Positions 8,250 through 56,588 are shown, counted from the stretch's first letter. The stretch: DNA of 64,000 nucleotides from Deltaproteobacteria bacterium (GCA_013151235.1 JAADIO010000022.1:4256-68255); one strand, 5' to 3'. A program made the numbers and translations. The notes: a model not told the origin generated them from the sequence alone.

Positions 8250-8326
8250 CGCACCATCCGATTCCCGATTTCAATTTCCCAATTCCTGTTTTCCGGTTCC
8301 CGATTTCGAATCGCTATTTACAAATT

Positions 8327-8508
8327 TGATGAAGTCGTAAAAAGTCCGTTCGACCCTTCGACACGCTCAGGGCGAACGGTGTAAGTCATTGATATTCCGT
8401 TCGTGTGGTTCGGCCGGCTTCCGAGCATGGTGAGCTTGCCGAACCACATGCTCGGAAGCCTGTCGAACCATGAACGGAATCCGAAAACGACTTTTTACGA
8501 CACCATCA
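8327..8508. mobile_element. MITE-like element copy A (182 bp, ~20-bp TIRs, 4-bp TSD AATT)
   Basis: TGATGAAGTCGTAAAAAGTC ... GACTTTTTACGACACCATCA; flanked by AATT at 8323-8326 and 8509-8512; internal long palindromes. Paralogous to 35533-35713. Confidence 0.7.
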
Positions 8509-8527
8509 AATTTCTGATTCCTAATTT

Positions 8528-9607
8528 CTAATTCCCGTTCCCCCGCGTTCCGAAGGTCCCCGGTTTCACCCATCGGTCGATCAGCGGGGTTGCGGCATTC
8601 ATCAGGAGAATCGCAAAGGAGACTCCTTCCGGATAGCCGCCCCAGAAACGGATCGTCATCGTGATCAGGCCGCACCCCACGCCGAAGACCAGCATCCCCC
8701 GGTGGGTCACCGGGCTGGTAACCAGGTCGGTGGCCATGAAGAAAGCGCCGAGGATCAGTCCGCCCGTGACCAGATGAAACTGCGGCGGAGCATAACGGTT
8801 CGGATCGATGCCGTGAAAGAGCGCCGCAATCACCAGAACCGTCCCTAAAAAGCTGAAAGGAATATGCCATGTGATCACCCGTTTCGCAATCAGGTAGAGC
8901 CCCCCGATGATCAGGGCCAGGGCCGAGATCTCACCTAAACTCCCGCCGACATGCCCCAGGAAGGGATCGATGAGGGAGAGATGAGCGATTCCGGAAAGGT
9001 CATGATGGAGAAGAATGGACTCCTTCATTCTTCCTAATGGCGTGGCCCCCGTTACGGTGTCGACCCCCCGCTGGAAAAAGGGCTGCGCCTTCGGCCAGGT
9101 CGTCATCTGGACGGGCCAGGAGATCAGGAGGACCACACGGGCGACAAGAGCCGGGTTGAACAGGTTGTACCCCAGCCCCCCGTAGAGCTGTTTTCCGATG
9201 ATAATGGCGACACCGCTTCCGACGACGCAGAGCCACCAGGGGGCGCCGGCCGGCAGATTCATGGCCAGCAAAATTCCCGTCAGGGCGGCACTCAGATCAC
9301 CAACCGTCACGGTACGATGCATGATCCGTTGCAGGAGTACCTCAAACCCGATCGCCGTAACGGTCGTAATCAGGAGGACCCGGAGGGCATCAAAACCGAA
9401 AAAATAGAGCCCGACGAGCAGGCCCGGTACCAGCGCCAGGATCACATTGTGCATCAACAGAGGGATCGACTCCCCGCTTGCAATATGGGGAGAAGAGGAA
9501 AGGACCAGCGGCTCCGCAGCGGCCTCTTCCTTTTTCTTGACCGGCGCCTTATTCCCTTTCTCATTCGGCGCCGGTTTCGACGTTGTCTCTTTTTTTTCTT
9601 CCGCCAT
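8528..9607 (-). CDS. rnfD: Rnf complex subunit D
   Basis: 359 aa polytopic membrane protein; Lys/Glu-rich N-terminal extension then the NqrB/RnfD core; conserved C-terminal TGATPLG motif. Confidence 0.9.
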   Translation of the reverse strand: MAEEKKETTSKPAPNEKGNKAPVKKKEEAAAEPLVLSSSPHIASGESIPLLMHNVILALVPGLLVGLYFFGFDALRVLLITTVTAIGFEVLLQRIMHRTVTVGDLSAALTGILLAMNLPAGAPWWLCVVGSGVAIIIGKQLYGGLGYNLFNPALVARVVLLISWPVQMTTWPKAQPFFQRGVDTVTGATPLGRMKESILLHHDLSGIAHLSLIDPFLGHVGGSLGEISALALIIGGLYLIAKRVITWHIPFSFLGTVLVIAALFHGIDPNRYAPPQFHLVTGGLILGAFFMATDLVTSPVTHRGMLVFGVGCGLITMTIRFWGGYPEGVSFAILLMNAATPLIDRWVKPGTFGTRGNGN

Positions 9608-9763
9608 AATCCCTGTGACCGATCCTTACGTACCCGGTTTGTTGTTGTCAGGCATTCTTACTCGCAATTTTACTCTTAATCCTAACCAGATGATCTTAAA
9701 AATGGATTAAGGTTACGATGAAGATTAAGAGCAATCCCCTGCTCCCCTGTCCCTAAGATTTTC

Positions 9764-9840
9764 CCCCGTGCTCCCCGTGGTCAATGCTTTTGATCTTGCC
9801 TTTGCCCCTCTGTGCCTCTGCCCCTTTGCCCCTCTGCCTG
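9764..9840. repeat. inter-cistronic repeat (family member R1) abutting rnfC stop codon
   Basis: CCCCGTGCTCCCCGTGGTCAATGCTTTTGATCTTGCC...TGTGCCTCTGCCCCTTTG about 85% identical to 24481-24560. Confidence 0.7.
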
Positions 9841-11163
9841 TTACTTCTTCTTCCGGGCCATCACCTCGGCCTTGCCGAACCGGATCAGGTGCACCAGCGG
9901 CCGGGCGGCCGGGCAAATAAAGGCACAGGAGCCGCACTCGATACAGTCGAGGATCCGGTTCCCTTCCAGTTCGTCCATGACGCCCGCCTCCACGTAGACA
10001 CCCAACAGACTCGGGTTGATCCGCATGGGACAGGCTTCCACACATTTTCCACACCGAATGCAGGGGCGGGAATCTTTCAGTTTCAGGTCTTCCTCCCGGA
10101 AGACCAGGATCCCCGAAGTACCCTTGATCACCGGGACTTCCAGTGAGTACTGGGTCATTCCCATCATGGGGCCGCCGGAGATGACCTTCCCTCTTTTGCC
10201 TTTAAACCCGCCGCAGTAGTCGATCAGCTCCGAGAAGGGGGTCCCGATCCGGACCCGGAGGTTCTTCGGATCCCGGATGCCCGGGCCGGTAACGGTCGTC
10301 ACCCGTTCAATGAGCGGCATCCCGTCATGAACAGCACAGTAGATGGCAGACGCAGTTCCCACGTTCTGGACCACCACCCCCACATCCATAGGCAGCCCAC
10401 CCGAAGGGACTTCCCGGTTCAGGATGGCCTTGATCAACTGCTTCTCCGCCCCCTGCGGATATTTCACCTTGAGGGGAACCACCTCAATCCCCGGAAGGGA
10501 TACAGCCTCCCGGGACATCACCTCGATGGCATCCGGCTTATTCCGTTCGATTCCGACAACCCCTCGCGAGACCCCCAGAACTTTCATGAGAATCGAAAGA
10601 CCGCCGAGGATCTTCTCCGGCGCCTCCAGCATGAGACGGTGATCGGCCGTCAGGAACGGTTCGCATTCCACGCCATTCACGATGACCGTATCAATCGATT
10701 TCTCGGCCGGCGGGGAGAGCTTCACATGGGTCGGGAAGGTCGCCCCGCCCATGCCGACGATCCCCGCGTCCCGGATCTTTGTCTTCAATTCCCCGGGAGA
10801 AAGAGAAAGAAAATCCTCACATCCCGAAAGGCCGTCGAATTTCCGGTCTTCCCCGTCGGAGTCGATCACAACGGAAGGAACATCCCGCCCGATTGCGTGC
10901 GGCATGGGTGCCACGGCGGTCACGATCCCGGAGATGGAGGCATGGACCGGCGCCGAGACAAACCCCTTTGCACCGCCGATCGGCTGCCCAGCGGAAACGG
11001 TTTCTTTTACCTTGACCAGAGCTTCACAGGGAGCTCCGATATGCTGCTGCAGGGGGATGACAACCCGCTTCGGCAGCGGAAGATTTTCGATCGTTTTCCG
11101 TTCCGTATAGTGTTTTTCTTCGGGAGGGTGAATCCCCCCTGCCGGAAAGGTAAGTGTCTTCAA
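9841..11163 (-). CDS. rnfC: Rnf complex subunit C (NADH-binding, 2x[4Fe-4S])
   Basis: 440 aa; two ferredoxin motifs CIRCGKCVEACP and CIECGSCAFICP. Confidence 0.9.
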   Translation of the reverse strand: MKTLTFPAGGIHPPEEKHYTERKTIENLPLPKRVVIPLQQHIGAPCEALVKVKETVSAGQPIGGAKGFVSAPVHASISGIVTAVAPMPHAIGRDVPSVVIDSDGEDRKFDGLSGCEDFLSLSPGELKTKIRDAGIVGMGGATFPTHVKLSPPAEKSIDTVIVNGVECEPFLTADHRLMLEAPEKILGGLSILMKVLGVSRGVVGIERNKPDAIEVMSREAVSLPGIEVVPLKVKYPQGAEKQLIKAILNREVPSGGLPMDVGVVVQNVGTASAIYCAVHDGMPLIERVTTVTGPGIRDPKNLRVRIGTPFSELIDYCGGFKGKRGKVISGGPMMGMTQYSLEVPVIKGTSGILVFREEDLKLKDSRPCIRCGKCVEACPMRINPSLLGVYVEAGVMDELEGNRILDCIECGSCAFICPAARPLVHLIRFGKAEVMARKKK

Positions 11164-21000: not shown

Positions 21001-21021
21001 ACTTATCCACATATTGTATAT
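21001..21021. repeat. 21-bp perfect direct repeat, copy 1 (ACTTATCCACATATTGTATAT)
   Basis: Identical 21-mer recurs at 21101-21121, exactly 100 bp away, in the AT-rich region upstream of the 20971 GTG start. Confidence 0.8.
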
Positions 21022-21100
21022 AAAATGTGGAAAAACACCATATATAGGAGAACCTCTTGAGGAAAAGTCGAACGATATTCAGGGGTTGGAGAAAGAAAAA

Positions 21101-21121
21101 ACTTATCCACATATTGTATAT
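21101..21121. repeat. 21-bp perfect direct repeat, copy 2
   Basis: See copy 1. Confidence 0.8.
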
Positions 21122-21149
21122 GATTTGTTGAGAACCCTACATATAGTGT

Positions 21150-23971: not shown

Positions 23972-24391
23972 TTACCGGTTTGCAGTCATGCGGGAGACCT
24001 TCTCCCGGGTCAGCGCCCGTTTCAACCGAAGCTCGGCTCTTTGAAAACGGCTTTCGTCTTCCTCCCGCATTTCCCGGAGGCTCTTTTCCGCCCGCTCTTG
24101 CGAGGCATGGGCTCGAGCGACATCAATCTCGTCGGAACGCTCCGCCGTCTCGGCTAAGACAATAACATGGTCCTCATGGACTTCGATGAACCCTCCGCTC
24201 ACAGCGTAATAGATCTCGCTTCCCTCCCGCCGGGTCGAAATGATCCCGATCTGCAGGGTACTGAGAAAGGGGACATGACCGGGAAGGACCCCGAACTCTC
24301 CCACGGAACCGGGAAGGGTCACTTCATCCACTTCCTCCGAGAAGGCAAGCCGTTCCGGAGTCACGATTTCAAAGAGAAGTTTGCCTGCCAT
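23972..24391 (-). CDS. atpC: F1 ATP synthase epsilon subunit
   Basis: Start at MAGKLLFEIVTPER (ATG 24391); the ORF-track N-terminal extension is not credible. Confidence 0.85.
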   Translation of the reverse strand: MAGKLLFEIVTPERLAFSEEVDEVTLPGSVGEFGVLPGHVPFLSTLQIGIISTRREGSEIYYAVSGGFIEVHEDHVIVLAETAERSDEIDVARAHASQERAEKSLREMREEDESRFQRAELRLKRALTREKVSRMTANR

Positions 24392-24480
24392 AGTATAATC
24401 CTGTTCCCCTTTTATTCTGCCGTCGAGGTAGGAGCACTTTCCATCATCTTCGTATGATGTTGCTCTGTGTCTCAGGCTTT

Positions 24481-24560
24481 CCCCGTGCTTCCCCGTGGTT
24501 AATTGCTTTTGATTTTGCGTTGTGCCTCTGCCCCTTTGTGCCTTTGTATCTCTGTGCCTG
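24481..24560. repeat. inter-cistronic repeat (family member R2) abutting atpD stop codon
   Basis: CCCCGTGCTTCCCCGTGGTTAATTGCTTTTGATTTTGCG...GTGCCTCTGCCCCTTTGTGCC; paralog of 9764-9840. Confidence 0.7.
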
Positions 24561-24566
24561 ATCCGC

Positions 24567-26875
<2,309 letters not shown>

Positions 26876-35445: not shown

Positions 35446-35532
35446 GGTCGCCTCCTTTCAGTGATTGATACACAAAAACTAAGTGGTCGCGTTCATGGCT
35501 GTACTTCATGGTTGTGTTCCTTGATTCAAGAT

Positions 35533-35713
35533 TGATGGTGTCGTAAAAAGTCACGAAGCCCTTCGACCCTTCGGCCGGCTCAGGACAGGCCCGCTCAGGG
35601 CGAACGGTGTAAGTTATTGATATTCCGTTCGTGTGGTTCGGCCGACTCACCATGCTCGGTAGCCTGTCGAACCATGAACGGAATCCGGAAAATGACTTTT
35701 TACGACTTCATCA
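35533..35713. mobile_element. MITE-like element copy B (181 bp, ~20-bp TIRs, 4-bp TSD AGAT)
   Basis: TGATGGTGTCGTAAAAAGTC ... GACTTTTTACGACTTCATCA flanked by AGAT (35529-35532 and 35714-35717); shares the core CAGGGCGAACGGTGTAAGT.ATTGATATTCCGTTCGTGTGGTTCGGCCG with copy A. Confidence 0.7.
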
Positions 35714-35745
35714 AGATTATTCATGGCCGAGATTTTCCCGGCACC

Positions 35746-44923: not shown

Positions 44924-45628
44924 TCACTCCGCAACGGGATTGTTCGATGCCGCTCCCCGGGCGATAATACGGAACGTGACAACCGGCACCTGAGGAAGGT
45001 CCGTACGGATCAGGGCAAGGCCGGAAAAATCCGGTTGTTCGGCCTTGCCGACGAACGCCACCGACACCTTGATCTCACCACCGGCAGGCACGGCAGGATC
45101 GTCGACAGAGATCCTGAGGCGGGTATCGAAGGGTTTTACGACCTCAAGATGGATCGGCTTCGCCGAGTGATTCGACAGAGTCACCGACCGGGAGACCACC
45201 TTCCCCGGAGGAACCAGGCCGAAGTTACAAATCAGGGGATTCACGGTAACGGGTTCCAGGACATTCCCTTTGATCCGGAGCAGGAATCGCCCGTCCGGCG
45301 CGTTGGTCAGGAGGGAAATCCCCTTCGACTGGGGACCCCTTTTGTGCCGGGAGTTAAAAACCACGAGAAGTTCGCCGCTCTTCCCCGGGGCGATCTCACG
45401 CGGGTAGTCACGGGCAACGGTGCAACCGCAGGTGGTTTCCACCTTGTAAATCTCCAGCGTCTCGTCCCCCCGATTTTCCAGTTCAAAGCGGTGTACCACC
45501 TGGGTCCCCTGGAGAATCGTTCCAAAGTCAAAGACCGGCGAAGAGACCGCCACTCGCGGCCCCACGGCCGCTGAAACCGCAGCACAGAGCATCATCATAA
45601 GAACAACGGCCAGGATCTTTCGTATCAT
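44924..45628 (-). CDS. DUF1573-family secreted protein
   Basis: Start MIRKILAVVLMMMLCAAVSA (ATG 45628); ETTCGCTVA motif typical of DUF1573 Ig-like domains. Confidence 0.6.
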   Translation of the reverse strand: MIRKILAVVLMMMLCAAVSAAVGPRVAVSSPVFDFGTILQGTQVVHRFELENRGDETLEIYKVETTCGCTVARDYPREIAPGKSGELLVVFNSRHKRGPQSKGISLLTNAPDGRFLLRIKGNVLEPVTVNPLICNFGLVPPGKVVSRSVTLSNHSAKPIHLEVVKPFDTRLRISVDDPAVPAGGEIKVSVAFVGKAEQPDFSGLALIRTDLPQVPVVTFRIIARGAASNNPVAE

Positions 45629-45732
45629 GGCGCCGCCCTCTCTTCCAGGAGGGATTTGCACCGCGTGTGGCTCATGCTTTTGGGCTTGACTTTTGACTTT
45701 GTTTCTCTCCGTGGTTAATGCTGTGGTTGCCG

Positions 45733-46560
45733 TTACTCCGCGTCCTTTGCACACCGAAAGCCGACGTCGTTGTGGTGATAACCTTCGATGGCAATCGCCT
45801 GCCGTCGGGTAATCCGCAACAGCGCGGCATTTGAACTCCATGCCCCCCCCCGGATCACGTGGATCCCCTTGCCGTACAGTCTGTTCGACATCTCATTGCC
45901 GGGGTACGGGGTATAGACACCCGCTGTCCATTCGGAGACGTTCCCGGCCATGTTGCGAACCCCGTAGGGCGAACTATCGGTCGCATAGAAGTCCCCGGGA
46001 ACGGTGCGGGTGTAGATGGGGTTGTGGAAGAGGGTCGCGGAGTAGCATGCCCAATAGCGGCCCCCGTGGTAGGGCGGCTCATTACCCCACGGATAGCGGC
46101 GCCCGTCGGTGCCCCGTGCGGCCTTTTCCCATTCCGCCTCCGTGGGGAGACGCTTTCCCGCCCACTTCGCATAGGCATCCGCATCCTTCCAGGTCACCTC
46201 GACCACCGGCAGTTCGTCCTTGCCCATCACCGGGTTCTTCAGTTCCACCGGCAGGGTCCGTCCGGTCGCCTCGGCAAATTTGCGGTACTCGCCCACGGTC
46301 ACCTCATGAGTATCAATATAGTAGGCGGGCAGATCCACGAGATGAGCGGGCGCCTCATCGTCGTACGAGTCGTCCGCTCCCATCCGGAAGGAGCCGGCGG
46401 GGATATAGGTCATTCCCGGGATCACCGCCGGCGGCTTTGCAGACTGCTGCTCGGCATGCTGCGCCACCTCTTTCGCCGCATGCTGCTCCGGCTTCCCGCT
46501 ACAGCCGGAACCGAAGGAGATCAAAACAAGAAGGAGAAAAACCATTCTGTAAGGGGACAT
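45733..46560 (-). CDS. FGE-sulfatase (SUMF1/formylglycine-generating-enzyme-like) domain lipoprotein
   Basis: GSFRMG...RGGAWSSNAALLRITRRQAIAIEGYHHNDVGFRCAKD; ATG 46560 with GGAG RBS. Alternative GTG at 46602 overlaps the upstream stop as GTGA. Confidence 0.8.
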   Translation of the reverse strand: MSPYRMVFLLLVLISFGSGCSGKPEQHAAKEVAQHAEQQSAKPPAVIPGMTYIPAGSFRMGADDSYDDEAPAHLVDLPAYYIDTHEVTVGEYRKFAEATGRTLPVELKNPVMGKDELPVVEVTWKDADAYAKWAGKRLPTEAEWEKAARGTDGRRYPWGNEPPYHGGRYWACYSATLFHNPIYTRTVPGDFYATDSSPYGVRNMAGNVSEWTAGVYTPYPGNEMSNRLYGKGIHVIRGGAWSSNAALLRITRRQAIAIEGYHHNDVGFRCAKDAE

Positions 46561-46598
46561 AATAAAATCTCCAATTCTTATGGATATCGACCGGCAGA

Positions 46599-48812
46599 TC
46601 ACCGATCGGCATGAGCCCAGGCAACGGCACGGTCGTAGTCCTTACCGATCGGCGTGCCGCGATAGTTGATGTTACGAGCGAGCAACGGAACGCCGGCAGG
46701 CGTGGTGCGATGGCACGCGCTGCACTCCACGGGTCCGGTGGAACCATCCGGGTTGTACTGGACCGCCTGCTGCGGCGACACCTCGTCATTGCCCAGGGGA
46801 TTGACCGGGAAAAGGCCGTGGGCCGCCTGATGGCACCCCTGGCAGGTGATCCCGGCATGGGCACTCGAAAAACGCATCAGACTGTATTTCTGTGGTTGAT
46901 CGACGGGGAAAAAACCACCCCCCATCGATTCCACAAAGGGCGGAGCGTGACAGTCGGCGCAATGCGGCAGACCCGCTGAAAACCAGTAATCCTTGCTGCC
47001 GGAGACATCACCATAAGAGACAGGAACGGCACCGTCCACTGCCGTTGCCGACACCGTGCCGTCTTTCTTCCGGTACCCGAGCGGTGCCCCTTTGCCCCGC
47101 TCCCAGGTAGCTTCGTTCCTGTCCCGCCCCTTCACTACCTTCGGGTCCAGGTAGCGGTCGATAAGCTGCTGCACGTCACCGCCGGTGAGTACCGCAGCAA
47201 TTTCCGGGATCGTTTTATTCCGCAATCCCGCTCCCGCGCCCGTCGCCGTATCGGTCAGCCGGTCCGCCCGGTAAAGGGCAATGGAAAGTCGGTTGTGACA
47301 GTGCGTGCAATAGAGCCCCCGGTCCTTGCCCTCCTCATCCCAGACGGTATCAAGGTACCATTTCCCGATCGCGTTCAGGTGACTCTTTGTGTGCAGTTCG
47401 GCCGCCCGGTACGGGTTTGAGTGGACGTCGCGGCCGGTGTAACTGCCTGCGGCATCCCGGTTGTCCCCCTTCGCGTACCGGTTGGCGCCATCCCGGGTAA
47501 CGGGGAAACGATCGAACCGACCCGCATCCGAGTGGGCCGGGTGGCACATCTGACAGTTCCCGGGCCGCCCCCCGGCGTCCGGAGCGGGCATCACCTCGGC
47601 ATGTTTTCTGTGTATCGCCTCGGTCAGCGACAACCGCGCCCGCACCTTCGAGTCGGCAATATTGGTCATGGGGCTGTCGTTCATCCGGAGACGACCGATG
47701 ACGTTATCCGCGTGGCACGAGGGACAGAAAACCGTCTGGCGACCCAGGCGGTTGAGGCTCGAGTTGTTGCTGTAGTTCCAGGTAAAATGGGTCTGCTCGT
47801 CCTTGTCGTGAAGTTCGAGGATGGAAATGGCCGCCGCCTGGGTGGTGGAGAAATGCTCGGTAGAATCACTGTAGGTCTTCAGCCAATAGCTGTATTCCGC
47901 TCGGTACTTCTTCGCCCGGTCGCCGTTCGCACGCTTCGTGCCATGGCACCGATCACAGGAGGGAGCATCGACGGGGATTACCCCCATGGCGGTCATGACA
48001 CTGCCGTCACGATCCATCACGAAACGGCCGGCTTTGTCCCGCAAGGTGATGATCACCCGCTGATAGGGCTGGTACTCCACCTCCTTGCCCGAACGGAGGC
48101 TTTTGTTTCCGCGCGAGTAGTCGAGGTAGGGAGTAAGCGGTAACCCTACGGCATCCCACAGATCAGGCGGAGCGAGGGGGATCGGGATATCGGTCGTGTC
48201 GTTTTCTCCGTCAACGAAAAAGCGTACGCCGCTCTCGCCGGTATAGTGAAGACTACGATCACGCTTCAGAATCGGCGGCCAATCAGTAATGCGCCGGCCG
48301 GTGATCCCATGGTCGTCATCGGGAGGGTGGGTATTCCAGACGTAAATGCGATCCTTCGCCGTCGCCCCGGCCGGTCGGACGCCATCGGGCCGACCGTAGG
48401 TATAATAGGGACGGATGAACTCGACCGGTGGCTGGTCGAAGGGATCGAGCCGCTCCCCGTTCCGGTCAACATCATACTTGACCCCCCAGTAGGAAAGCTT
48501 GTTGCCGGAGGAATAGGAATTTCCCTGAAAACCGAACTCGGGCTGCACACCGTCCGTCGGGGTCATCAGTTTCGGCGGCGTCCCGTCCGATCCTTCCGTA
48601 CGGATTACCTGTACCTGCACGCTGTTAAAGGGAGGCAGGGCGGCCGTATATTTGAAATCGAAGCTGGTGATGTGCATCCCCAATTCCGAATGGATCAGGA
48701 TTACATAACGGTGCTGGGGCTCATGGAACTCTTCCAGGGCAGGTGCCCTAACCGGAAACAACGCAACCATGCCCAGGAACAGCAGGACAATCCTCGTGCA
48801 ATAAGCGCTCAC
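46599..48812 (-). CDS. 7-heme c-type cytochrome with N-terminal non-heme domain (paralog of the 1662-aa cytochrome)
   Basis: GTG start overlapping the PPIase stop (GTGA); signal peptide; CXXCH motifs CDRCH, CPSCH, CQMCH, CTHCH, CADCH, CQGCH, CSACH. Confidence 0.85.
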   Translation of the reverse strand: MSAYCTRIVLLFLGMVALFPVRAPALEEFHEPQHRYVILIHSELGMHITSFDFKYTAALPPFNSVQVQVIRTEGSDGTPPKLMTPTDGVQPEFGFQGNSYSSGNKLSYWGVKYDVDRNGERLDPFDQPPVEFIRPYYTYGRPDGVRPAGATAKDRIYVWNTHPPDDDHGITGRRITDWPPILKRDRSLHYTGESGVRFFVDGENDTTDIPIPLAPPDLWDAVGLPLTPYLDYSRGNKSLRSGKEVEYQPYQRVIITLRDKAGRFVMDRDGSVMTAMGVIPVDAPSCDRCHGTKRANGDRAKKYRAEYSYWLKTYSDSTEHFSTTQAAAISILELHDKDEQTHFTWNYSNNSSLNRLGRQTVFCPSCHADNVIGRLRMNDSPMTNIADSKVRARLSLTEAIHRKHAEVMPAPDAGGRPGNCQMCHPAHSDAGRFDRFPVTRDGANRYAKGDNRDAAGSYTGRDVHSNPYRAAELHTKSHLNAIGKWYLDTVWDEEGKDRGLYCTHCHNRLSIALYRADRLTDTATGAGAGLRNKTIPEIAAVLTGGDVQQLIDRYLDPKVVKGRDRNEATWERGKGAPLGYRKKDGTVSATAVDGAVPVSYGDVSGSKDYWFSAGLPHCADCHAPPFVESMGGGFFPVDQPQKYSLMRFSSAHAGITCQGCHQAAHGLFPVNPLGNDEVSPQQAVQYNPDGSTGPVECSACHRTTPAGVPLLARNINYRGTPIGKDYDRAVAWAHADR

Positions 48813-50248
48813 TTTTGACCTCCGGAGGATGCCGGCGGCAACGCCTTACCCCGTTTTGCCGTCGGCAGGGTCACCCGGCCGAACCAGTCCGGATCGATAA
48901 CGACCTTGTGCTTTTTGCGCAGCTCCGCCAGATAGGGTCCCATATTCTTCTTGAAGAAGAATTCATTGTAGTGTTCGCGCTTGTCGCTGTTATTGATCCG
49001 TTTCAGGGAAAGCTGCTCCGGTGCGACTCGCTCCAGGGTGCGAATGAGATGCCACCCGAGCGGCGATTTCACCGGCCGACTGACCTCTTTTACCTTCAAG
49101 GCAAAGGCCGCCTTTTCCAACTCGGGAAGGATCTTCCCCCTCCCTTTTGTGATCCATCCCAAGACCCCCGAAGTCCGCCCGGCGGACGGATCGATGGAGC
49201 GCTCCTGGGCGAGCTTGTAGAAAGGATCGTAGTCCTCGGTAGTCTCCTTGAGGATCTGCTTGCGCAACGCTTTCGCCTCGGCCCTGGTCTTCACCACGAT
49301 CTGCTGCAGACGCCGCCGTTCGGGAATGGTAAAGTCCTTCGGATGTTCCTTGTAGTATTCGGCAAAAGCCTTATCCGTGGGGATATACTTTTTACGCAAT
49401 TTCGTCACGAGCTGCGCTGCGGTGAGGTCGCGCACAAAGTCGTCGTGGCGGTGCCGGTAGGTGGGGTCCCGATCGAGGCCGAGGCCGCGTGCCTTGCGTG
49501 CCTTGAGAATCTCAACTCCCATGGCAAGAAGTTCGGCACGCCGTTCCCCCGTACTTTTCTTGTTCTTAAGGCGAGGCCGTGCCCATCGCCAGGTCACCGG
49601 CTCGCCTGCAACCGTGGCGATTACCTGCCCCGGCTGTCGCTTATCGTCATCGTTCAGTGCAATATCGGCATCCTTCACCTCCACCCGGAGCGTCTTTCCC
49701 AAACTCTCCGCAAGTTCCTTACGTACCTCGTCGAAACGGCGGGCGGCAAGCTTGTTACGCATAACCCGGCGCATCTCGGCATCAAGTTTGTTGGCACCAT
49801 GTTTGGTGTTCTTCTCCTTCTTCCACGCAGCCTCCACCTCTGCATCGGTAATCTTGCTGCGTCGGTTGTAGAAGTCACGGGTATAGAGGTCGGCGAGGGT
49901 TTGAATCTCCCACGCCTTCAGGCGGGTACGGAATTTTTCGCTCTGATCCAGCCCTTCCGACTTTGCCTCAAGATAGAGAAGACGCTGGTTGATGAGATTC
50001 GTAAGAAAAGCCTGTTTCACCCGCCGTCCCTGACCGGAGGAGTTAAGTTGATCCGCGTACGCCTGCAGCGGGGTGGAGTCAATCGCCTGGATCACCTCCC
50101 AGTCGTGGATGGCAAGGCCGTCCACGGTGGCGACGACGCCGGATTCCCCTGCGGGTTTCCCCTTCGCCGCATCGGCTGCAAGGGTCGTGCCGGCAAGGAG
50201 TACCAGAAAGGAGAAAAGAAGAGAAACGACGACCGAAAGCTTCTTCAT
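48809..50248 (-). CDS. parvulin-type peptidyl-prolyl cis-trans isomerase (SurA/PpiD-like periplasmic chaperone)
   Basis: 479 aa, signal peptide, SurA-N-like region and parvulin domain (GVLGWITKG...GWHLI); strong GGAGG RBS. Confidence 0.75.
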   Translation of the reverse strand: MKKLSVVVSLLFSFLVLLAGTTLAADAAKGKPAGESGVVATVDGLAIHDWEVIQAIDSTPLQAYADQLNSSGQGRRVKQAFLTNLINQRLLYLEAKSEGLDQSEKFRTRLKAWEIQTLADLYTRDFYNRRSKITDAEVEAAWKKEKNTKHGANKLDAEMRRVMRNKLAARRFDEVRKELAESLGKTLRVEVKDADIALNDDDKRQPGQVIATVAGEPVTWRWARPRLKNKKSTGERRAELLAMGVEILKARKARGLGLDRDPTYRHRHDDFVRDLTAAQLVTKLRKKYIPTDKAFAEYYKEHPKDFTIPERRRLQQIVVKTRAEAKALRKQILKETTEDYDPFYKLAQERSIDPSAGRTSGVLGWITKGRGKILPELEKAAFALKVKEVSRPVKSPLGWHLIRTLERVAPEQLSLKRINNSDKREHYNEFFFKKNMGPYLAELRKKHKVVIDPDWFGRVTLPTAKRGKALPPASSGGQK

Positions 50249-50580
50249 AAATAACCTCCAACATCCGCTTTAATGAGTGTTTCGCAAAGTACCCGAAAAA
50301 CCGTATACTGTCAAGGGGTTAAGACCCGCATTTTTCGAACCTGCAAATCCCCCCTACCCCCCCTTTCCGGCGCCTCCCCCTTTTTAAAGGGGGACTGAGG
50401 GGGATTCCGCGCTTGTCTTTGATTTTCCTTGCGCCCTTGGCGTCCTTTGCGAGAAGGCGCTTTCCGCTTTTAGCCTTTGACCGGGGCGGTTTGTAAACCG
50501 CCCCCTACATCGATTTGTTTTTCTTTGCGGCCTCTGCGTCTCTGCGGTGAGATCACCTCTTGATGGTTTCATAATAGACC

Positions 50581-50650: not shown

Positions 50651-53600
50651 TTACGGGTTCGACAAGGCACCCACATGGCAATAACCGCACGAGTTTGTCA
50701 TCCCCGCAGGCGTGGTATCTCCCGCAGGATCGGGGTCACCGTTTGCAGCCAGATCGGTCCTCATGGCATCTACGAACTCCGTGGTCACCACGTCGAAGGT
50801 ATGGGAGTGGATATCCCCCTCACGGTACTGGTTCGAACCATCCGTGAGGGAGTTCTCCCACCGCGCCGTTTTGGCCGTCTTCGGCATATGGCAGTTGGTG
50901 CATCGCCCCATACCGCTACCCACCGGATCATAGGTCATGTAACTCATAGTACTGTTCACCCACTTCCCTATGTGACGCATCACCTCGGAGGCGATCGTGG
51001 CCTCATCGGTCGGGGTCGTGGTCCCGGCGGCAAGATCATCCGCCATCGACTGGGTAACAAACTGGAAGTTCGCAGGATCGGCGCCTTCCAGGCTTTCGTC
51101 CGGAGTCGTTTCACCCGCACCCGGTGCTCTGAGGGAACTGTTGTGACAACCCAGGCAGAGAGCGTTGTTATCACCGTTGGCAGTGAGCTGATGCTCTTCG
51201 ACCACACCGGCGGCACTGGGACCGCCATGAGCGTCATGACAGTCGATACAGGTCACCATCTCCATGTCGTTCTTGTACATCGTCGTACGCACCACGTCGT
51301 AGTACTGCTGGTGGTGGCCCTTCGAATGGTTGAAGGAACCGGTCACCTGCGTTACATTCCCCGCCGCAGTAGAAGTCACGAAGGGGTTGGCCGACTCATA
51401 ACCGATATCCTGCCAGCTATGGTGATCGGTGGTATAGTCGATCGCCTCCCAGTATCCGCCGACGGTCCCGAAGTCGGGAGCCAGGCCGGTGCCGTCTGCG
51501 GTGCCGTAGTACTCGGCGGGACTCATCCCCGGCTTGAAGACCGTAATCGCCGGATCGACAGTGAGATCTCCCACGGAAGCGAAGCCCGCATGAGCGCCGC
51601 TTGAATCAAGGACGCTGTGACCGTGACCGCGCTGGTGACAGGTGCCGCAAACCATCGTCAGACGTCCCGGAGTCAGAAGATCCGGCTGGACGATATTGTA
51701 GCCCTCGCCGCCGTTTGCCACATGTTCGGAACCCGGACCGTGACAGCGCTCGCAGCCGATGTTGCCGGCGTAGACGTTGGACGCGACCTGGTCAATGTAC
51801 TGGGTGATGAAATTGCCGTTGCTATCCTTGGTAATGCCGACACCGCCGTGGCAGCCGGCGCAGTCAACACCAAAGGACTCGGTGGGTGCACCCGTAGGCG
51901 TCGTACCAAGGCCTGCGGGTGTAAAAACGTCGGCACCCATGGTGGTCGGTGTGGACCACTTACCGGAGAACTCACCGTTCTCCCCGAAGGCAGCGGGGTC
52001 GGATCCGGACTCGTTCCACTGGAACGGAGCCGGATAATAATAGGAGGAACCGCCGGCCTGCACGTGCGCCGTTCCCGGCTCTCCATTGGCGCCGACAAGA
52101 AGCATGTAGCGCTGCTTGGCAACTCCCTCACCGCCATAGGTGAAAGCAACGTTGTACGTAGCCGAAAGGTTCCCGCTGCATGTGGCGTTATCCGCCATCT
52201 GCATTGTGGGCGTACCCCCCGAGTAACCCAGCTTGGCGTAATGGGTGTTGCCCTGGGCGGAGAAGCTAATGCAGTCGCCATTGGCGAATGCCGCCAAGCC
52301 ACCATCAGCGTTGGCTGCCCAACTCGTCATATCCTGCAGACTGTTGGCCATCGTATAGCCGGGGTTGGACGGATCCGGAACGCGGAATCCGAGGAAGTGA
52401 AGGGTGTGCTTCAGCGAACCCTTCGCATGGCACCCAAGACAGGTAGACGAACCGACGTAGGTCGCCGAGGTGGACGGTGTCATCGAAATCGTGATGTCAC
52501 CGAAGGCCGGCATGTTGACTACGTGGCCGTTGACCACCTTGAGAGTTTCACGCCGAGCCCACGGCAGGTGTGCCGTATCGCTCCCCGCAGGGATGACGCA
52601 GGCATAGTAATCACCGTCGGCCAGCGGCACACCATTAAAATTGTAGCTGCCATCAGCTGCGGTGGTCGCAAAACCGCCGTTGGAATTGGACCCGCCGATC
52701 ACTGCGTTGGCGACATCCTCAATCGGCTGAATGGAACTGCTCGCCTCCACATCGGCAGCAGAAACAAAGACCACGGAGGCATTGGCAACCTTCGCCGTGG
52801 AGGTATCAACGACCGTACCGTGAAGTGCAAGACCGGTCATATTATTGTGATTGGCGCAATCGTCGTTGGCCGGGGCTTCCGGAATCATCGTGCGCCCGTA
52901 GCCGAGCGGCAGGCCCAACCCGTTGTCGGTTGCGTTTCGTTCGACCGTCGGCAGGGTACTCCTCGCGTCCCGCACGGTATGCATGTAGATCACCGCCAGG
53001 TCATAGTTGGTGCCGATCGTTACGCCGTTCACCTTCTTCTTCGCCGCGACTGTCGGTACACCGCCGTTGTTGGTCACGTGACATGCGCCACAGGTAACGG
53101 GACCGTGCGAACCGTTGGCATTATACTGGAGCGCAGCGTTGCGGGTCGTCGGATCGTTCAGCGGCGACACCGGGTAGAGCCCGTGGGTCGACTCGTGACA
53201 CGACTGACAGGCGATCCTCTCGTGACCCTTGGAGTGGCGCATGAGGGCGTACTTGCCGGGCTCGGCCCAGGGCGGATTCATCCCCTGGGACTCGACAAAT
53301 GGATACGCGTGACAGTCGGCGCAGTGCGGCTCACCCGCAGAGGCCCAGAAGTCACTCCCGTCGGTCACCACACCGTAGGGGACACCGGGGACAACTTCGC
53401 CGCCCATCCCCTTGTACTGGTAGTGGTCATTGGTATCATCAATCACCGTCTCACCGCCGAGTTCGGAGGCAATATCCACTGCTTCCTGCTCGGTCAGCGG
53501 CGTATCGACACCGCCGAACATCAGGCCTTCGGCCGCAGCGTTCTGCGTGGCAACCAGGAGGTCTTCAGCCGATTCGCCGGCAATCGCAGGTCCCAGTCCA

Positions 53601-55639
53601 CCGATACCGCCGGCACCGTGGCAGAGATCGCATTCCTTGTCCTCGTAGACGTTGGTGCCGCCTGTCGGAGTGACGGTCCGCAGTTTCGGGTCCATGTACT
53701 TGGAGGTCAGGTCCGACACGGAGACACCCAGTGCGGCGGCAATCGACGGAATCCCCGAATCACGCAGGGTTGAGGTCGCGGGACGCGCCGTCGAACCCGG
53801 AATGGTGGGATCGCCGATCCCGGTGTCCGTTTTCCACAGTTCGGAGGCGAGCCGGTTGTGACAGTTCGTGCAGTAGATTCCCTTGCCGGTGCCCGCATCG
53901 ACGTTATCCAGGTACCATTGGCCGATGGCGTTCAGGTGGCTGGGCGTATCGTCCGGCTCGTTGTTACGGTCCATGTTGCCATGAACGTCCCGATTGGTGA
54001 AACAGCCCACGGAGTCACGGATGTCCGTCTGGGCGACGGAGGTCAGCGTCCCCTGGTAGCTGAGCGGGAAGTTGGTCATGTCGCCGTTCTGGGTATGGGC
54101 CGGATGGCAGGCCTGGCAGTTGCCGGCGCGGCCGTTGTTATCCGGCAGCGTACGCTCAACAGCGCCGGAATGACGCATATGGATGGCATAGGTCAGCGCC
54201 TGGTTGCCGACATTGTCCCGGCTGGCAGGGTAACGCTCCGCCTCGGAGGCTGCCGGCACGGACGGAGACTGGTTGTCGCAGAAGCGGTCACCGGCCTGGA
54301 AACGGCCTACGATGTTATCTGCGTGACATGACTGACACATCACTGATTGCCGACCGAGACGGTTGTTCCCGACACCACTCGGGTCGTAGTTGCCAAGGAA
54401 GTTGGTGCCGAAATCGGAATCGTGGATACCGAGCATCCCCACCGCCGCCGACTTCAGCCGGGCATAATATCCCGTGGCCCCCTGGGCGAGCCAGTAATTA
54501 TACTCCTGCAAGGCGTGACCACCCGGATCACCCGCGGGAATGGTTCCGCTGGCGGGATCATAGCCATGACACTTTTCACATGCCGGGGAGTCGATTGGGG
54601 CGGTGCCGAAAAACTGCACCGGTGTTCCATCGTGCTGCAGCATCTGGTTGCCGGTGGAAGCGTTGTACATGTAGACCCACTGCTCCTGAAAGGGCCTGAA
54701 ATCGCTCTCGGCGATGTCGGTAATGTTTTTGCCCACCACCAGGGAGTCGTTGAACGGGGTCAGCGCAATGCCGACAACATCCCAAACATCGGCGGTCGTC
54801 AGAACCACGGGCACATCGGAGAGACGCATGCCATCGAGGCCGAGACCGGCGCCCGCGGCATCAATGATCTTGGTATAGGTATAAACGACCGTCCCCTCAT
54901 TGCCCACATAGGTGAGGCCTGGACGGCCGAGACCTAAGCCGTTAAGTGCATCGGCCGACTTGTCCGCAAGCTTGTTGGCCATCGCCCCGAAGGTGGGGCC
55001 GTGGTCCTGGGGAATATTGAGGGAGGCACCACCGACAGAGATACGATCGGTCGCCAGGGCACCCGCCGCCTTGCCGCCTTCGAGGAAGGGGAGAACGGGC
55101 GGATCACCCGGACCGGCACCGCCGGAAACGCCGATGCCGGAGCCGGCATCCTTCCCGGTAAAGGGATTGTAAGTATAGAGAGAGTCGAACTCAACATTCG
55201 ACAACATGTCCTCAGGGTCGGTGGTGGTCCCGTTGACGTTCGAGTCGGGACTACCGTCGGCCCATTTCTCGGTGCCGTTCCCGGCATCATAGGGGACTGT
55301 CCAGTAGGCCAGCTTTGCTCCCTCCGAGAAGGAATTGTCCTTGAACTCATAGCCGAGCTTAATGTTGTCGGCGGGTGTGAGTTGCTTCGGGTGTGCACCG
55401 GTTTTCACCGCCTGCGCCTGGATCGAGTTGAAGGGCGGCAGGACGCAGCAATAGGAAAAATCAAAACCGGTACAGTGCATCCCCAACTCATAGTTGGTAA
55501 AAATGAGATAGTTCTTCTTGGGTGAGTTGAGATGGCGGCCCCGGCTGCGCCTGCCGCGGGCAACGGCATTCGTCGCCAGCGAGGCGACAAAAAGTACGCC
55601 CAGGACCAGCATCAGAATCTGAATGGCTGTCTTACGCAT
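50651..55639 (-). CDS. giant (~1662 aa) ~16-heme c-type cytochrome with N-terminal non-heme domain and an internal Cna-B/carboxypeptidase-regulatory-like domain
   Basis: Start at MRKTAIQILMLVLGVLFVASLATNAVA (ATG 55639, AAAGGAG RBS); 16 CXXCH motifs counted by eye; TAADGSYNFNGVPLADGDYYACVIP prealbumin-like domain. The ORF-track start at 55828 would overlap the upstream gene. Confidence 0.85.
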   Translation of the reverse strand: MRKTAIQILMLVLGVLFVASLATNAVARGRRSRGRHLNSPKKNYLIFTNYELGMHCTGFDFSYCCVLPPFNSIQAQAVKTGAHPKQLTPADNIKLGYEFKDNSFSEGAKLAYWTVPYDAGNGTEKWADGSPDSNVNGTTTDPEDMLSNVEFDSLYTYNPFTGKDAGSGIGVSGGAGPGDPPVLPFLEGGKAAGALATDRISVGGASLNIPQDHGPTFGAMANKLADKSADALNGLGLGRPGLTYVGNEGTVVYTYTKIIDAAGAGLGLDGMRLSDVPVVLTTADVWDVVGIALTPFNDSLVVGKNITDIAESDFRPFQEQWVYMYNASTGNQMLQHDGTPVQFFGTAPIDSPACEKCHGYDPASGTIPAGDPGGHALQEYNYWLAQGATGYYARLKSAAVGMLGIHDSDFGTNFLGNYDPSGVGNNRLGRQSVMCQSCHADNIVGRFQAGDRFCDNQSPSVPAASEAERYPASRDNVGNQALTYAIHMRHSGAVERTLPDNNGRAGNCQACHPAHTQNGDMTNFPLSYQGTLTSVAQTDIRDSVGCFTNRDVHGNMDRNNEPDDTPSHLNAIGQWYLDNVDAGTGKGIYCTNCHNRLASELWKTDTGIGDPTIPGSTARPATSTLRDSGIPSIAAALGVSVSDLTSKYMDPKLRTVTPTGGTNVYEDKECDLCHGAGGIGGLGPAIAGESAEDLLVATQNAAAEGLMFGGVDTPLTEQEAVDIASELGGETVIDDTNDHYQYKGMGGEVVPGVPYGVVTDGSDFWASAGEPHCADCHAYPFVESQGMNPPWAEPGKYALMRHSKGHERIACQSCHESTHGLYPVSPLNDPTTRNAALQYNANGSHGPVTCGACHVTNNGGVPTVAAKKKVNGVTIGTNYDLAVIYMHTVRDARSTLPTVERNATDNGLGLPLGYGRTMIPEAPANDDCANHNNMTGLALHGTVVDTSTAKVANASVVFVSAADVEASSSIQPIEDVANAVIGGSNSNGGFATTAADGSYNFNGVPLADGDYYACVIPAGSDTAHLPWARRETLKVVNGHVVNMPAFGDITISMTPSTSATYVGSSTCLGCHAKGSLKHTLHFLGFRVPDPSNPGYTMANSLQDMTSWAANADGGLAAFANGDCISFSAQGNTHYAKLGYSGGTPTMQMADNATCSGNLSATYNVAFTYGGEGVAKQRYMLLVGANGEPGTAHVQAGGSSYYYPAPFQWNESGSDPAAFGENGEFSGKWSTPTTMGADVFTPAGLGTTPTGAPTESFGVDCAGCHGGVGITKDSNGNFITQYIDQVASNVYAGNIGCERCHGPGSEHVANGGEGYNIVQPDLLTPGRLTMVCGTCHQRGHGHSVLDSSGAHAGFASVGDLTVDPAITVFKPGMSPAEYYGTADGTGLAPDFGTVGGYWEAIDYTTDHHSWQDIGYESANPFVTSTAAGNVTQVTGSFNHSKGHHQQYYDVVRTTMYKNDMEMVTCIDCHDAHGGPSAAGVVEEHQLTANGDNNALCLGCHNSSLRAPGAGETTPDESLEGADPANFQFVTQSMADDLAAGTTTPTDEATIASEVMRHIGKWVNSTMSYMTYDPVGSGMGRCTNCHMPKTAKTARWENSLTDGSNQYREGDIHSHTFDVVTTEFVDAMRTDLAANGDPDPAGDTTPAGMTNSCGYCHVGALSNP

Positions 55640-55655
55640 GGAAGCTCCTTTCATT

Positions 55656-56588
55656 TTACACATGGTGCCCTCCTTTCCCACCTGCACGACGACGAAGCCC
55701 CAACAGGCCGAAAAGCCCGGTCGCCAGGAAGACGAGGGACGAAGGCTCGGGAACCATTGCCGTGGTGGTAAGGGCGTTAAGATTGTCGCTCGACAACAGA
55801 CCCAGGTCCGCGGCCGTGATGGCGACATTCGAGGTGTTGTTCAGAAAAAGGTCCGCGGCCGATCCGTAGCCGGAGGCGGAAGCCAGCGAAAACAGAACAT
55901 CTCCCGTAACAGCATCAATGGCCAGCGCGTCTAAGTCCTGTCCCTGCTCAATACCAAGCGACGCGGCAGTCCGGAAGATGTTACCAAGACTGTTGAGATA
56001 GATGTTCCCATCACCGGCAAGGGAGAAGTAGACATCCCCGTCCTGACCCGGAACATAAGGTGCGGCACCGAGATCCACGGCATCGAGATCATCATTGTTC
56101 TGTCCGTAAGCGCTATCGTTCAGACCGTAGTCCTCACCATAAGTATCCGCAAAGTTGACCCCCGCAAGCTGGCCCGGGTTGGCGTCGAAAAGCGTCCCCA
56201 TCTGCCGACTGGTCGAGGCCTTCCATGCCACGTCCGTGCCCGAAGCGCCCTGGCTGTTCGCATCCACCGAGAAATAGACGTCGTAGATGCTTGCGGGATC
56301 AGCACTGTCAAACCCGAAGGAGAGGGCGTCGATCTCGTCGGCCGCGGACAATCCGAGATCGGCCGGCGTCAACGCCACGGTGTTGGTGCCGTCGAGCGGC
56401 GTATCGAAGAGATGGGCGCCGTCCGGACTGGTGCTGTATACGTCATTAGGCATATTCGTTCCGGGAGCAACGCCGATCCCGTCATTGAGCACCGAGAAGG
56501 TGTCGGCCCGGCCGATCGCCGGAAGAGCGAAGATACAAATCATTGAGACAACCGCCAGAAGGCGGAGCCTTAACCCATAACATTTCAT
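55656..56588 (-). CDS. PEP-CTERM sorting-signal protein 1 (Asp-rich secreted protein)
   Basis: C-terminus VPEPSSLVFLATGLFGLLGLRRR (PEP motif, TM, basic tail); signal peptide from ATG 56588; 16-bp gap to the cytochrome start. Confidence 0.75.
   Translation of the reverse strand: MKCYGLRLRLLAVVSMICIFALPAIGRADTFSVLNDGIGVAPGTNMPNDVYSTSPDGAHLFDTPLDGTNTVALTPADLGLSAADEIDALSFGFDSADPASIYDVYFSVDANSQGASGTDVAWKASTSRQMGTLFDANPGQLAGVNFADTYGEDYGLNDSAYGQNNDDLDAVDLGAAPYVPGQDGDVYFSLAGDGNIYLNSLGNIFRTAASLGIEQGQDLDALAIDAVTGDVLFSLASASGYGSAADLFLNNTSNVAITAADLGLLSSDNLNALTTTAMVPEPSSLVFLATGLFGLLGLRRRAGGKGGHHV

Follow-up and report, generated by a model that had tools for sequence, protein, structure and literature searches.

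Two intercistronic spacers in a 64 000-nucleotide stretch of DNA from a Deltaproteobacteria bacterium (GCA_013151235.1, JAADIO010000022.1:4256-68255; the whole stretch is called the window) contain copies of the same purine-rich repeat. The first lies between rnfC (9841–11163) and rnfD (8528–9607), and the second between atpD (24567–25997) and atpC (23972–24391), all four genes being on the minus strand. Positions follow the numbering of the whole stretch, and the minus strand is the mRNA sense of the surrounding genes. A preliminary description of the sequence had noted both copies, together with weaker relatives between the genes of an FGE-sulfatase (45733–46602) and a DUF1573 protein (44924–45628), and between those of a multihaem cytochrome (50651–55828) and a PPIase (48809–50248), again on the minus strand; its names for all eight flanking genes are borne out by Pfam. 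At their full extent copy 1 occupies 9738–9840 and copy 2 24455–24563 (minus strand), ∼80–100 bases each. Copy 1 abuts the rnfC stop codon (TAA, 9841–9843), and copy 2 as first delimited begins 6 nt past that of atpD (TAA, 24567–24569), so that the original placing of both within 0–6 nt of a stop is correct. The distance to the next start codon, given earlier as 90–130 nt, is 89 nt for copy 2; it does not apply to copy 1, where rnfD begins 156 nt downstream.

The two copies are plainly related. Local alignment in the mRNA sense gives 69 identical bases of 80 (86%) with three gaps, in keeping with the ∼85% first reported, and the score of 69 stands far above that of 500 dinucleotide shuffles (21.0 ± 3.8, maximum 35). 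The likeness runs on for ∼25 nt beyond the element as first delimited, in the 3′ direction on the mRNA, to ∼9738 and ∼24455. As mRNA the copies are 70–76% purine with 7% T, within spacers that are 64–68% purine overall; copy 1 has 42% G and 17% C, and copy 2 has 43% A. Each is bipartite, with an 8-nt purine tandem array (module A) followed by a conserved arm (module B) of the form AAAGCA-TTnA-CCACGGGGAnCACGGGG. Tandem Repeats Finder reports a period-8 array of ∼5 units in each copy, at 9799–9838 and 24520–24559, and in copy 2 only an additional period-10 doublet at 24479–24497.

In the sense direction copy 1 reads TAA CAGGCAGAGGGGCAAAGGGGCAGAGGCACAGAGGGGCAAAGGCAAG ATCAAAAGCATTG ACCACGGGGAGCACGGGGG AAAATCTTAGGGACAGGGGAGCAGGGGA. 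Its module A (9797–9840, minus strand) runs from the rnfC stop as ∼5 units of GGCAGAGG, GGCAAAGG and CACAGAGG, assigned from the period-8 array; its module B (9763–9796, minus strand), assigned with a cross-phylum arm profile, has an A-rich head AGATCAAAAGCATTG and then ACCACGGGGAGCACGGGGG, which is two 9-nt CACGGGGNN units. Trailing purine units AAAATCTTAGGGACAGGGGAGCAGGGGA (9736–9762, minus strand) can be aligned in part with copy 2. The order in copy 2 is TAA GCGGAT CAGGCACAGAGATACAAAGGCACAAAGGGGCAGAGGCACAACGCAA AATCAAAAGCAATTA ACCACGGGGAAGCACGGGG AAAGCCTGAGACACAGAGCAACATCAT. Here the period-8 module A (24515–24563, minus strand) is composed of GGCACAGA, GATACAAA, GGCACAAA, GGGGCAGA and GGCACAAC, and the arm found by nhmmer (24481–24514, minus strand) is AATCAAAAGCAATTA followed by ACCACGGGGAAGCACGGGG. 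Beyond the arm lies the remainder of an insertion of ∼135 nt, beginning AAAGCCTGAGACACAGAGCAACATCAT (24423–24480, minus strand). An AU-rich hairpin with a stem of ∼14 bp (UGCUCUUAAUCUU...GGAUUAAGAGUA; 9672–9735, minus strand) lies downstream of copy 1, before rnfD starts; it is outside the repeat family and is not found at copy 2.

How general is the arm? We define it as an A-rich AAAGCA, T-N-A and ACCACGGGG, followed by at least one more CACGGGG unit at 9-nt spacing, and both window copies contain all of these elements; within the lineage of the window the head is written AAAATCAAAAGCATT. An nhmmer profile of 16 arms from diverse phyla detects copy 1 at E = 9.6e-9 and copy 2 at E = 4.3e-9, and with a profile built from the lineage the values are 1.1e-12 and 2.2e-12, respectively. 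A core pattern of 20 bases, AAAGCA N2-4 ACCACGGGGA N0-1 GCAC, occurs at 14 loci among 185 579 species representatives, in Terriglobales, Gemmatimonadaceae, Thiobacillus, Armatimonadota, Planctomycetota, Gammaproteobacteria and others, and GCACGGG continues past the pattern in 10 of the 14. The 18-mer ACCACGGGGARCACGGGG gave at least 120 matches in a metagenome scan. The same 18-mer matched only once in 2.9 million viral contigs, and a search of the PLSDB plasmids with the arm found no match, to which the low-complexity filter of BLAST may contribute; we have accordingly dropped the idea of a phage or plasmid feature for the collections searched. Scanning by composition for T-poor purine windows let through far too much to pick out members.

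In other phyla the arm is mostly one half of an inverted repeat. A reverse-complement partner lies 2–1200 nt downstream in 110 of 175 occurrences and upstream in 12, leaving 53 without a partner, some of which are cut by contig ends. The outer ends of the paired elements are AAAGCA..T-N-A/ACC and GGT/T-N-A..TGCTTT, and folding of two-armed members gives hairpins of −46 to −57 kcal/mol (z = −5 to −8). The distances between the arms fall into classes of 2–36, 55–100, ∼220–260, 376–574 and ∼1150–1200 nt. In Thiobacillus-like contigs two-armed elements exactly fill intercistronic gaps of the pil and mur operons, a stop codon preceding the left arm, and a ribosome-binding site and start codon following the right one, in each case at a distance of a few bases. 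A same-strand open frame of at least 100 codons ends no more than 30 nt upstream of 59 out of 156 arms, compared with 97 of 1340 random positions; the excess is real but no proof of targeting, as the control spans all DNA rather than intergenic DNA alone and 17 of the cases arise from a TAA or TGA inside the arm head. Two-armed elements may also be nested (L009, L106; loci are designated by L numbers), and a single deletion of the right halves of such a nest could leave several left arms in tandem. A tandem same-strand combination of a CGCAGAG/GGCAAAG-type module and an AAAGCA-CACGGGG arm is found behind stop codons in an Armatimonadota metagenome-assembled genome (L008, L013) and at L103.

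The spacing class of 376–574 nt reveals what the arms enclose. In eight of eight loci the segment between them encodes a GxxExxY protein (TIGR04256, PD-(D/E)XK-like), and GxxExxY coding sequence is present at L123 and L137 also. In most of these cassettes the open reading frame (ORF) starts inside the arm and in frame with it, as ATG AAC CAC GGG GAG CAC GGG (MNHGEHG). Thus the arm doubles as the first codons of the cassette, MNHGEHGEHG, the first ∼12 codons being MNHGEHGEHGEL. A search made with the domain only, and so independent of the arm, gave 117 homologues with the motif, in Blastocatellia, Sulfuricella, Sulfuriferula, Gemmataceae, Sumerlaeota and others, 50 of them with an N-terminus of the (N/D)HGEHG type. 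Cassette ORF and upstream host gene point the same way in every case resolved by a crude heuristic, in which orientation in metagenome contigs is judged from open-frame length only. Several of the genes are pseudogenes; a frameshifted copy (L007) still matches TIGR04256 at E = 2e-22. This copy (980–1391) lies at the pilB/pilC (gspE/gspF-like) junction of a Thiobacillus-like genome, and a second Thiobacillus-like genome has an apparently intact cassette at the same junction (L037, 12695–13128), which indicates that a cassette can outlast speciation at a single site and decay there. The proteins belong to Pfam family PF13366 (PDDEXK_3), for which a 2012 survey lists the function as unknown and describes multiple transfers between bacterial divisions (PMC3424549); such transfers fit the spread of the arm across phyla. 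When the PDB was searched by protein sequence with a GxxExxY protein, no match emerged. The searchable full-text literature, which does not extend to subscription journals, gave no relevant description for the arm or octamer strings or for GxxExxY, PF13366 and TIGR04256, so that a widespread family of inverted-repeat GxxExxY cassettes is apparently undescribed.

By contrast with these paired arms, the copies in the window are half elements. Their best score for a partner arm is 17–18, and that of relatives from the same lineage no higher than 18, compared with at least 30 for the 110 paired arms; no reverse-complement partner lies within ∼1.2 kb of either window copy. No GxxExxY coding sequence was found by tblastn in the 64 kb of the window. 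The frames of the window arms have ATT or TTG in place of ATG and reach a stop within 10–20 codons. We also looked for homology continuing past the arm into the GxxExxY coding region, but this was unconvincing, as only L145 and L146 read ...HGENL like some full genes.

Relatives found through AtpC and RnfD provide more copies, every one of them one-armed. The sample comprises the 64 kb of the source genome and ∼150 kb of relatives, and the selection of loci through atp and rnf genes biases the operons that are seen. One-armed copies occur between rnfC and rnfD (two modules) and between rnfD and rnfG in L141, in a gap of L019, ahead of a miaB-like gene in L006 (the gene preceding this copy is out of view), at addB/addA-like genes in L143, between nuoC and nuoD in L015, and between atpD and atpC in L145, L146 and L147. 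With orthologous sites counted once there are nine independent sites, and the purine-rich strand is the sense strand at all nine, for which the chance at random orientation is 2^-9. The single sense orientation behind stop codons that had been noted in the window thus extends to nine sites of the lineage. The distance behind the stop is 0–25 nt at most of the nine sites, and ∼45 and ∼97 nt at two. Same-strand tandem arrays of several different heads are found at L019 and L141, as well as at L008, L013 and L103. At L141 6458–6490 the A-rich head of the arm has grown to four tandem AAAGCA hexamers, which in one frame make an unbroken (A-R-N)n tract; this may be coincidence. In other bacteria (A-R-N)n repeats are bound by the distal face of Hfq.

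The window itself holds three or four copies. A 17-mer of the core, GCATTAACCACGGGGAG, has three matches with no more than three mismatches (at 9771, 24489 and 45705), all on the minus strand and just behind stop codons, where 0.17 would be expected by chance. Since the third match falls within 45655–45732, this segment is a genuine degenerate member, as had been proposed. It has two tandem heads, GCATTAACCACGGAGAG at 45705–45721, with one mismatch to the head motif, and AAAAGCATGAGCCACACGCGG at ∼45661–45682, and the member (45661–45732, minus strand) comes directly after the FGE-sulfatase stop codon (45733–45735). The other suggested relative, at 50430–50470, is weak, sharing only octamer-like units and GAAAATCAAAG with the strong copies. 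Adjoining it in the cytochrome/PPIase gap is a related purine module of another flavour, CACCGCAGAGACGCAGAGGCCGCAAAG (50518–50554, minus strand), and a module of this kind also precedes the arm in L008, L013 and L141.

Comparison of orthologous junctions shows that the repeat comes and goes. The atpD/atpC spacer is an empty 45 nt in L015, L016, L017 and L018 (AtpC 83–85% identical to that of the window), and a filled 159–175 nt in the window, L145 and L146 (AtpC of the latter two 86% identical); the short contig L147 (AtpC 88% identical) has the 3′ part of the same insert. The part of the insert downstream of the arm is retained in the filled relatives and missing from the empty site, and the stretch AAAATCAAAAGCAATTAACCACG of the copy 2 arm is the same in L145 and L146. 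Identity to the window at third codon positions is 0.71–0.73 for the filled relatives and 0.64–0.66 for an empty one, which fits a single insertion on one branch, after the split. The rnfC/rnfD spacer is 6 nt in L143 and L144 (RnfD 72% identical), 233 nt in the window and 606 nt in L141 (92% identical), where the same arm TCAAAAGCATTGACCACGGGGAACACGGGG lies amid other purine modules, a GTAG-type hairpin and another hairpin repeat, and the content is otherwise reshuffled. Presence or absence at orthologous sites, together with multiple copies, is the behaviour of a miniature inverted-repeat transposable element (MITE). The filled copies themselves differ, with two 9-nt units at atpD/atpC in the window, three in L145 and four in L146. 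The octamer block of the window copy is absent from L145 and L146 but resembles the block at rnfC/rnfD in the window, which suggests that copies exchange sequence within the genome. One genome assembly, GCA_024277725.1 (JAJRUP01), holds both an empty 45-nt atpD/atpC spacer (L018) and a filled 159-nt one (L145); the bin probably combines two populations that are related, or else there are two atp operons in the genome.

Taken together, these observations lead us to a reading to which we give a probability of roughly 60%: the repeats are non-coding, one-armed remnants, the decayed 5′ halves of small inverted-repeat GxxExxY cassettes or of hairpins derived from them, and are for the most part tolerated debris in operon spacers rather than conserved regulatory RNA. 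A full cassette is ∼470–660 bp in length and consists of a purine-rich arm with its AAAGCA head, start codon and 9-nt CACGGGGNN units, the GxxExxY gene (TIGR04256/PF13366) and the reverse-complement arm; in the short versions the gene is gone, leaving plain MITE-like hairpins of ∼70–150 nt. Cassettes lie a few bases behind a host stop codon with their ORF co-oriented with the host gene, a placement that may allow transcription by read-through and perhaps translation by termination and reinitiation, while leaving the ribosome-binding site of the next gene intact. In the lineage of the window the ORF and the distal pyrimidine-rich arm would have been lost, leaving the proximal purine arm joined to array modules with the 8-nt unit GGCA[AG]AGG. 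What remains would be an unstructured T-poor tract that an operon mRNA could tolerate, with no hairpin, terminator, RNase III site or C-rich site for loading of Rho. Slippage would change the number of units, and exchange between copies would keep their cores similar; for the host the tract would be mostly a tolerated spacer.

The orientation has a natural place in this account. In an inverted repeat of this kind the mRNA always has the purine arm first, and therefore a lone purine arm near the upstream stop is what remains after distal loss. Both the two-armed form, with its stem of 25–30 bp, and a lone C-rich arm would probably be more harmful within an operon, and this together with the co-orientation of the ORF would lead to the strict sense orientation. 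The order of events, the reason for the orientation, the mechanism of mobility and the lack of a host function are what we infer. Of the three possibilities raised in the preliminary description a decayed MITE family comes closest, as the core constitutes one arm of an inverted-repeat element that is widespread and has MITE-like short forms, and the sites are filled or empty among close relatives, but the window copies are without the partner arm.

Several observations weigh against the origin in cassette decay. The ∼150 kb sampled from the lineage yielded neither a two-armed nor a gene-carrying copy, and for this reason the order of cassette first and decay afterwards comes from other phyla. 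The composite of octamer block and arm is common to both window copies, so that independent decay would need parallel loss or later conversion. No clear target-site duplication flanks the paired elements and no transposase could be defined; comparison of filled and empty atpD/atpC sites hints at a duplicated TTGGATTTC-like stretch, but the flanks are too diverged for a duplication to be defined. Among one-armed metagenome copies in tandem contexts a longest-ORF heuristic gives three sense and three antisense, although this is unreliable in GC-rich contigs and contradicts manual reading of L103. Lastly, the core of the atpD/atpC copy (the head, the units and ∼27 nt downstream) is ∼93% identical between the window and L145, compared with 71–73% at flanking third codon positions and ∼72% in the 3′ part of the spacer. 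Such conservation above that of synonymous sites could mean purifying selection for a function instead of homogenization among copies. Homogenization can produce the same excess, and the excess is also the main argument for a role in the host.

A broader proposal, which we offer tentatively and with some doubt, would keep the cassette and add selection upon its remains. The arm would mark a selfish cassette spread across phyla, with a GxxExxY gene of ∼125 residues (PD-(D/E)XK-like) whose first codons and 3′ flank form the inverted repeat of 25–30 bp, that lodges behind stop codons inside operons, perhaps by means of an encoded nuclease recognizing its own arm or the tips of the hairpin. It would be the source both of the hairpin MITEs and of the one-armed purine tracts, and those in the lineage of the window would be kept by selection as single-stranded spacers acting on the operon mRNA.

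That the one-armed purine element is itself a functional cis-acting part of the operon mRNA we consider unlikely. It would then be a single-stranded A/G platform following the stop codon that binds a protein (one recognizing Hfq-type ARN repeats, S1, a CsrA-like factor or the GxxExxY protein) or retains ribosomes, with an effect on how stable the adjoining cistrons are or how well they are translated. The excess conservation of the core fits this, as do the strict sense orientation close behind stops, the presence of copies in operons of energy metabolism (atp, rnf, nuo) and the conservation of the arm sequence across phyla. Against it, the element is absent from the same junctions in close relatives, with their spacers of 45 and 6 nt, the number of units and the neighbouring modules vary freely, and the choice of loci through atp and rnf genes biases which operons are seen. 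The conservation is explicable by exchange between copies, of which the patch of octamer block is direct evidence.

Structural analysis gives little encouragement to a regulatory role. There is no fold common to copies 1 and 2; copy 1 has z = +0.6, and the z = −2.5 of copy 2 comes from a 6-bp helix that is missing in copy 1. Rfam 15 has no match in the window at the gathering score, and at E ≤ 10 the two spacers give only one 13-bit chance match. Terminator-like sites are lacking on both strands of each spacer, and the single promoter-like match is on the antisense strand of the copy 1 spacer. A riboswitch-like reading is not supported, and the idea of an element for mRNA processing or stability, another of those first put forward, receives little support from the lack of a common fold, Rfam match or terminator-like site and from its absence in the orthologous operons of near relatives. 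Sites for CsrA and RsmA have the sequence A(N)GGA, typically in hairpin loops and often overlapping the Shine-Dalgarno sequence. The octamers here read GGC rather than GGA, such GGA triplets as occur are few and fall within unpaired runs of GGGGA, with no conserved hairpin to present them in a loop, and the next start codon is 89–156 nt away; the GGA platform for CsrA that had been suggested is not supported. Readings as a site for integration host factor, as FtsK-orienting polar sequences (KOPS) or as Chi were dropped, the motifs fitting inconsistently. Integron attC sites are imperfect inverted repeats with R″ and R′ elements (RYYYAAC/GTTRRRY), each cassette having a single site at its 3′ end, and are grouped in arrays. 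We rejected an attC identity, as the arms here stand on both sides of the ORF, their outer ends (TTAACC/GGTTAA, TGAACC and so on) seldom fit GTTRRRY, and the elements occur singly in housekeeping operons.

It is improbable, in our judgement, that the one-armed purine module is itself what moves in this lineage, as a strand-specific and non-palindromic element copied by a single-strand mechanism (like IS200/IS605 or the repetitive extragenic palindromic (REP) sequences with their REP-associated tyrosine transposase, RAYT) or through an RNA intermediate, in one orientation with respect to replication or transcription. This would account directly for the finding that every copy in the lineage is one-armed and co-oriented, for the composite structure and boundaries that the two window copies share, and for the tandem same-strand arrays of different heads at five loci. 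But the arm is mostly paired in other phyla, where it forms the ends of gene-carrying cassettes, and the nested two-armed elements at L009 and L106 show how a single deletion of right halves would give tandem left arms. The surroundings of the copies showed no candidate transposase or reverse transcriptase, and the atpD/atpC insert includes ∼60 nt of sequence that is not arm.

We regard a G-quadruplex formed by the G-tracts of the arm, in RNA or DNA, as a roadblock or signal behind the stop, as very improbable. Such a motif needs four runs of at least three G with loops of no more than 7 nt. GGGG-N5 units are indeed repeated, L146 has four tracts in a row (GGGGG-ACAC-GGGG-AACAC-GGGG-AACAC-GGGG), and copy 1 has seven runs of at least four G in ∼105 nt. 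Yet copy 1 requires a loop of 9 nt, copy 2 has two adjacent tracts and one that is 36 nt off, L145 has three, and most arms elsewhere have two or three units. With two to four runs among the orthologues, and tract numbers differing among copies, orthologues and other arms, a four-tract motif is not conserved, and in two-armed members the G-tracts pair with the C-rich arm. Finally, although both spacers are 64–68% purine, a chance likeness of low-complexity spacers is refuted by an alignment score ∼13 standard deviations above dinucleotide shuffles, by three matches to the 17-mer head against 0.17 expected, and by the same arm at orthologous and non-orthologous sites of relatives.

If the repeats are the remnants of GxxExxY cassettes, two odd, long spacers in the rnf and atp operons are explained as insertion debris and not as regulators, which bears on annotation and on the reading of operons in a poorly known lineage. 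A very common protein family of blank function (GxxExxY, TIGR04256/PF13366) becomes tied to a defined DNA architecture. This would give a concrete handle for testing the role of GxxExxY in binding or cleavage of the arm and in mobility, and a reason for the near-identical CACGGGG hairpins in unrelated environmental genomes.

Other repeats were encountered in and around the window. A second MITE, a textbook example of ∼200 bp that has an internal hairpin and 25-nt terminal inverted repeats (AAATTTGATGAAGTCGTAAAAAGTC ... GACTTTTTACGAC..CATCAAATTT), is found at 8313–8513, in the rnfD/rnfG spacer of the same operon, and at 35532–35727, 27 kb away; it has relatives at L018 5264–5527, where the same termini fill the atpF/atpH gap, and at L006 1–140. 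GC-rich hairpins headed by GTAG, GTAGGGGGCGGTTTACAAACCGCCCC and GTAGCGTCCCGGTTTACCCGGGACG, REP-like in appearance, occur in spacers with purine arms, at ∼50490–50515 in the window and at L141 4840–4866 and 6696–6722, L019 ∼432–458 and L006 ∼392–418. A dispersed hairpin repeat, GGAATCCCCCTCAGTCCCCCTTTAAAAAGGGGG ... GGGGGGTAGGGGGGATTTGC, lies at ∼50330–50425 in the cytochrome/PPIase gap and at L141 4878–4990 in the rnfC/rnfD spacer. Elsewhere in the window, a 34-nt direct repeat ACTTATCCACATATTGTATATAAAATGTGGAAAA is found twice, 100 nt apart, within 21001–21134, with two perfect DnaA-box 9-mers TTATCCACA (21003 and 21103) and a box with one mismatch on the other strand (21026). It could be a DnaA-regulated promoter or a cluster like that of a replication origin. 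A 95-nt direct repeat, 74% identical, is present in two intergenic regions 1.4 kb apart (58069–58163 and 59456–59550), with a 21-nt tandem TGAAAAATTTTTCCACTTTTG at 59516–59555, and may be a shared regulatory region.

How do these elements compare with known systems? Like REP sequences and REPINs, they are short, high-copy intergenic repeats lying between and after the genes of operons. What moves in a REPIN is a doublet in inverted orientation, which folds as a hairpin, singlets being viewed as remnants (Bertels & Rainey 2011, PMC3116915; PMC3337134), a relation that resembles that of the one-armed to the two-armed elements. The REP sequence differs in being a short palindrome with a GTAG-type head, moved by a single-copy RAYT transposase. 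Here the arm is non-palindromic, with tandem 9-nt units and a head AAAGCA..TTAACC, and also supplies the first codons of a GxxExxY gene; the window arms have no palindromic GTAG-type unit, the GTAG hairpins of these spacers being separate from them. Moreover, a REPIN is for the most part peculiar to its lineage and inherited vertically, whereas this arm is near-identical across phyla. The family as a whole has the marks of a MITE, with terminal inverted repeats, short non-coding forms of 70–150 bp, many copies, presence and absence, and a longer relative that carries a gene. Unlike a typical MITE it has no identified target-site duplication or parent transposase, the gene being that of a small PD-(D/E)XK-like protein and no known transposase, and one repeat has been lost from the window copies, so that they are without the terminal inverted repeats of their short two-armed relatives in other genomes.

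Closer in layout is the intervening sequence (IVS) of 23S rRNA. That of Coxiella burnetii is ∼430–444 nt long, with one small ORF of unknown function and an inverted-repeat stem of ∼28 bp, and is considered selfish, its ORF decaying (PMC4990558). The size and arrangement of these elements, with their S23p/four-helix-bundle ORF, match those of the GxxExxY cassettes (arms of 25–30 bp, ∼470 bp in total), and both are embedded in a host transcript. An IVS lies in the helices of rRNA and is excised by RNase III, in contrast to the present elements in operon mRNA, where the ORF is GxxExxY and not S23p and the window copies cannot form the stem. The last comparison is with the GxxExxY family itself (TIGR04256; PF13366, PDDEXK_3; Steczkiewicz et al. 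2012, PMC3424549). Although the window copies encode no such protein, their arm corresponds to the 5′ end of a large subfamily of its genes.

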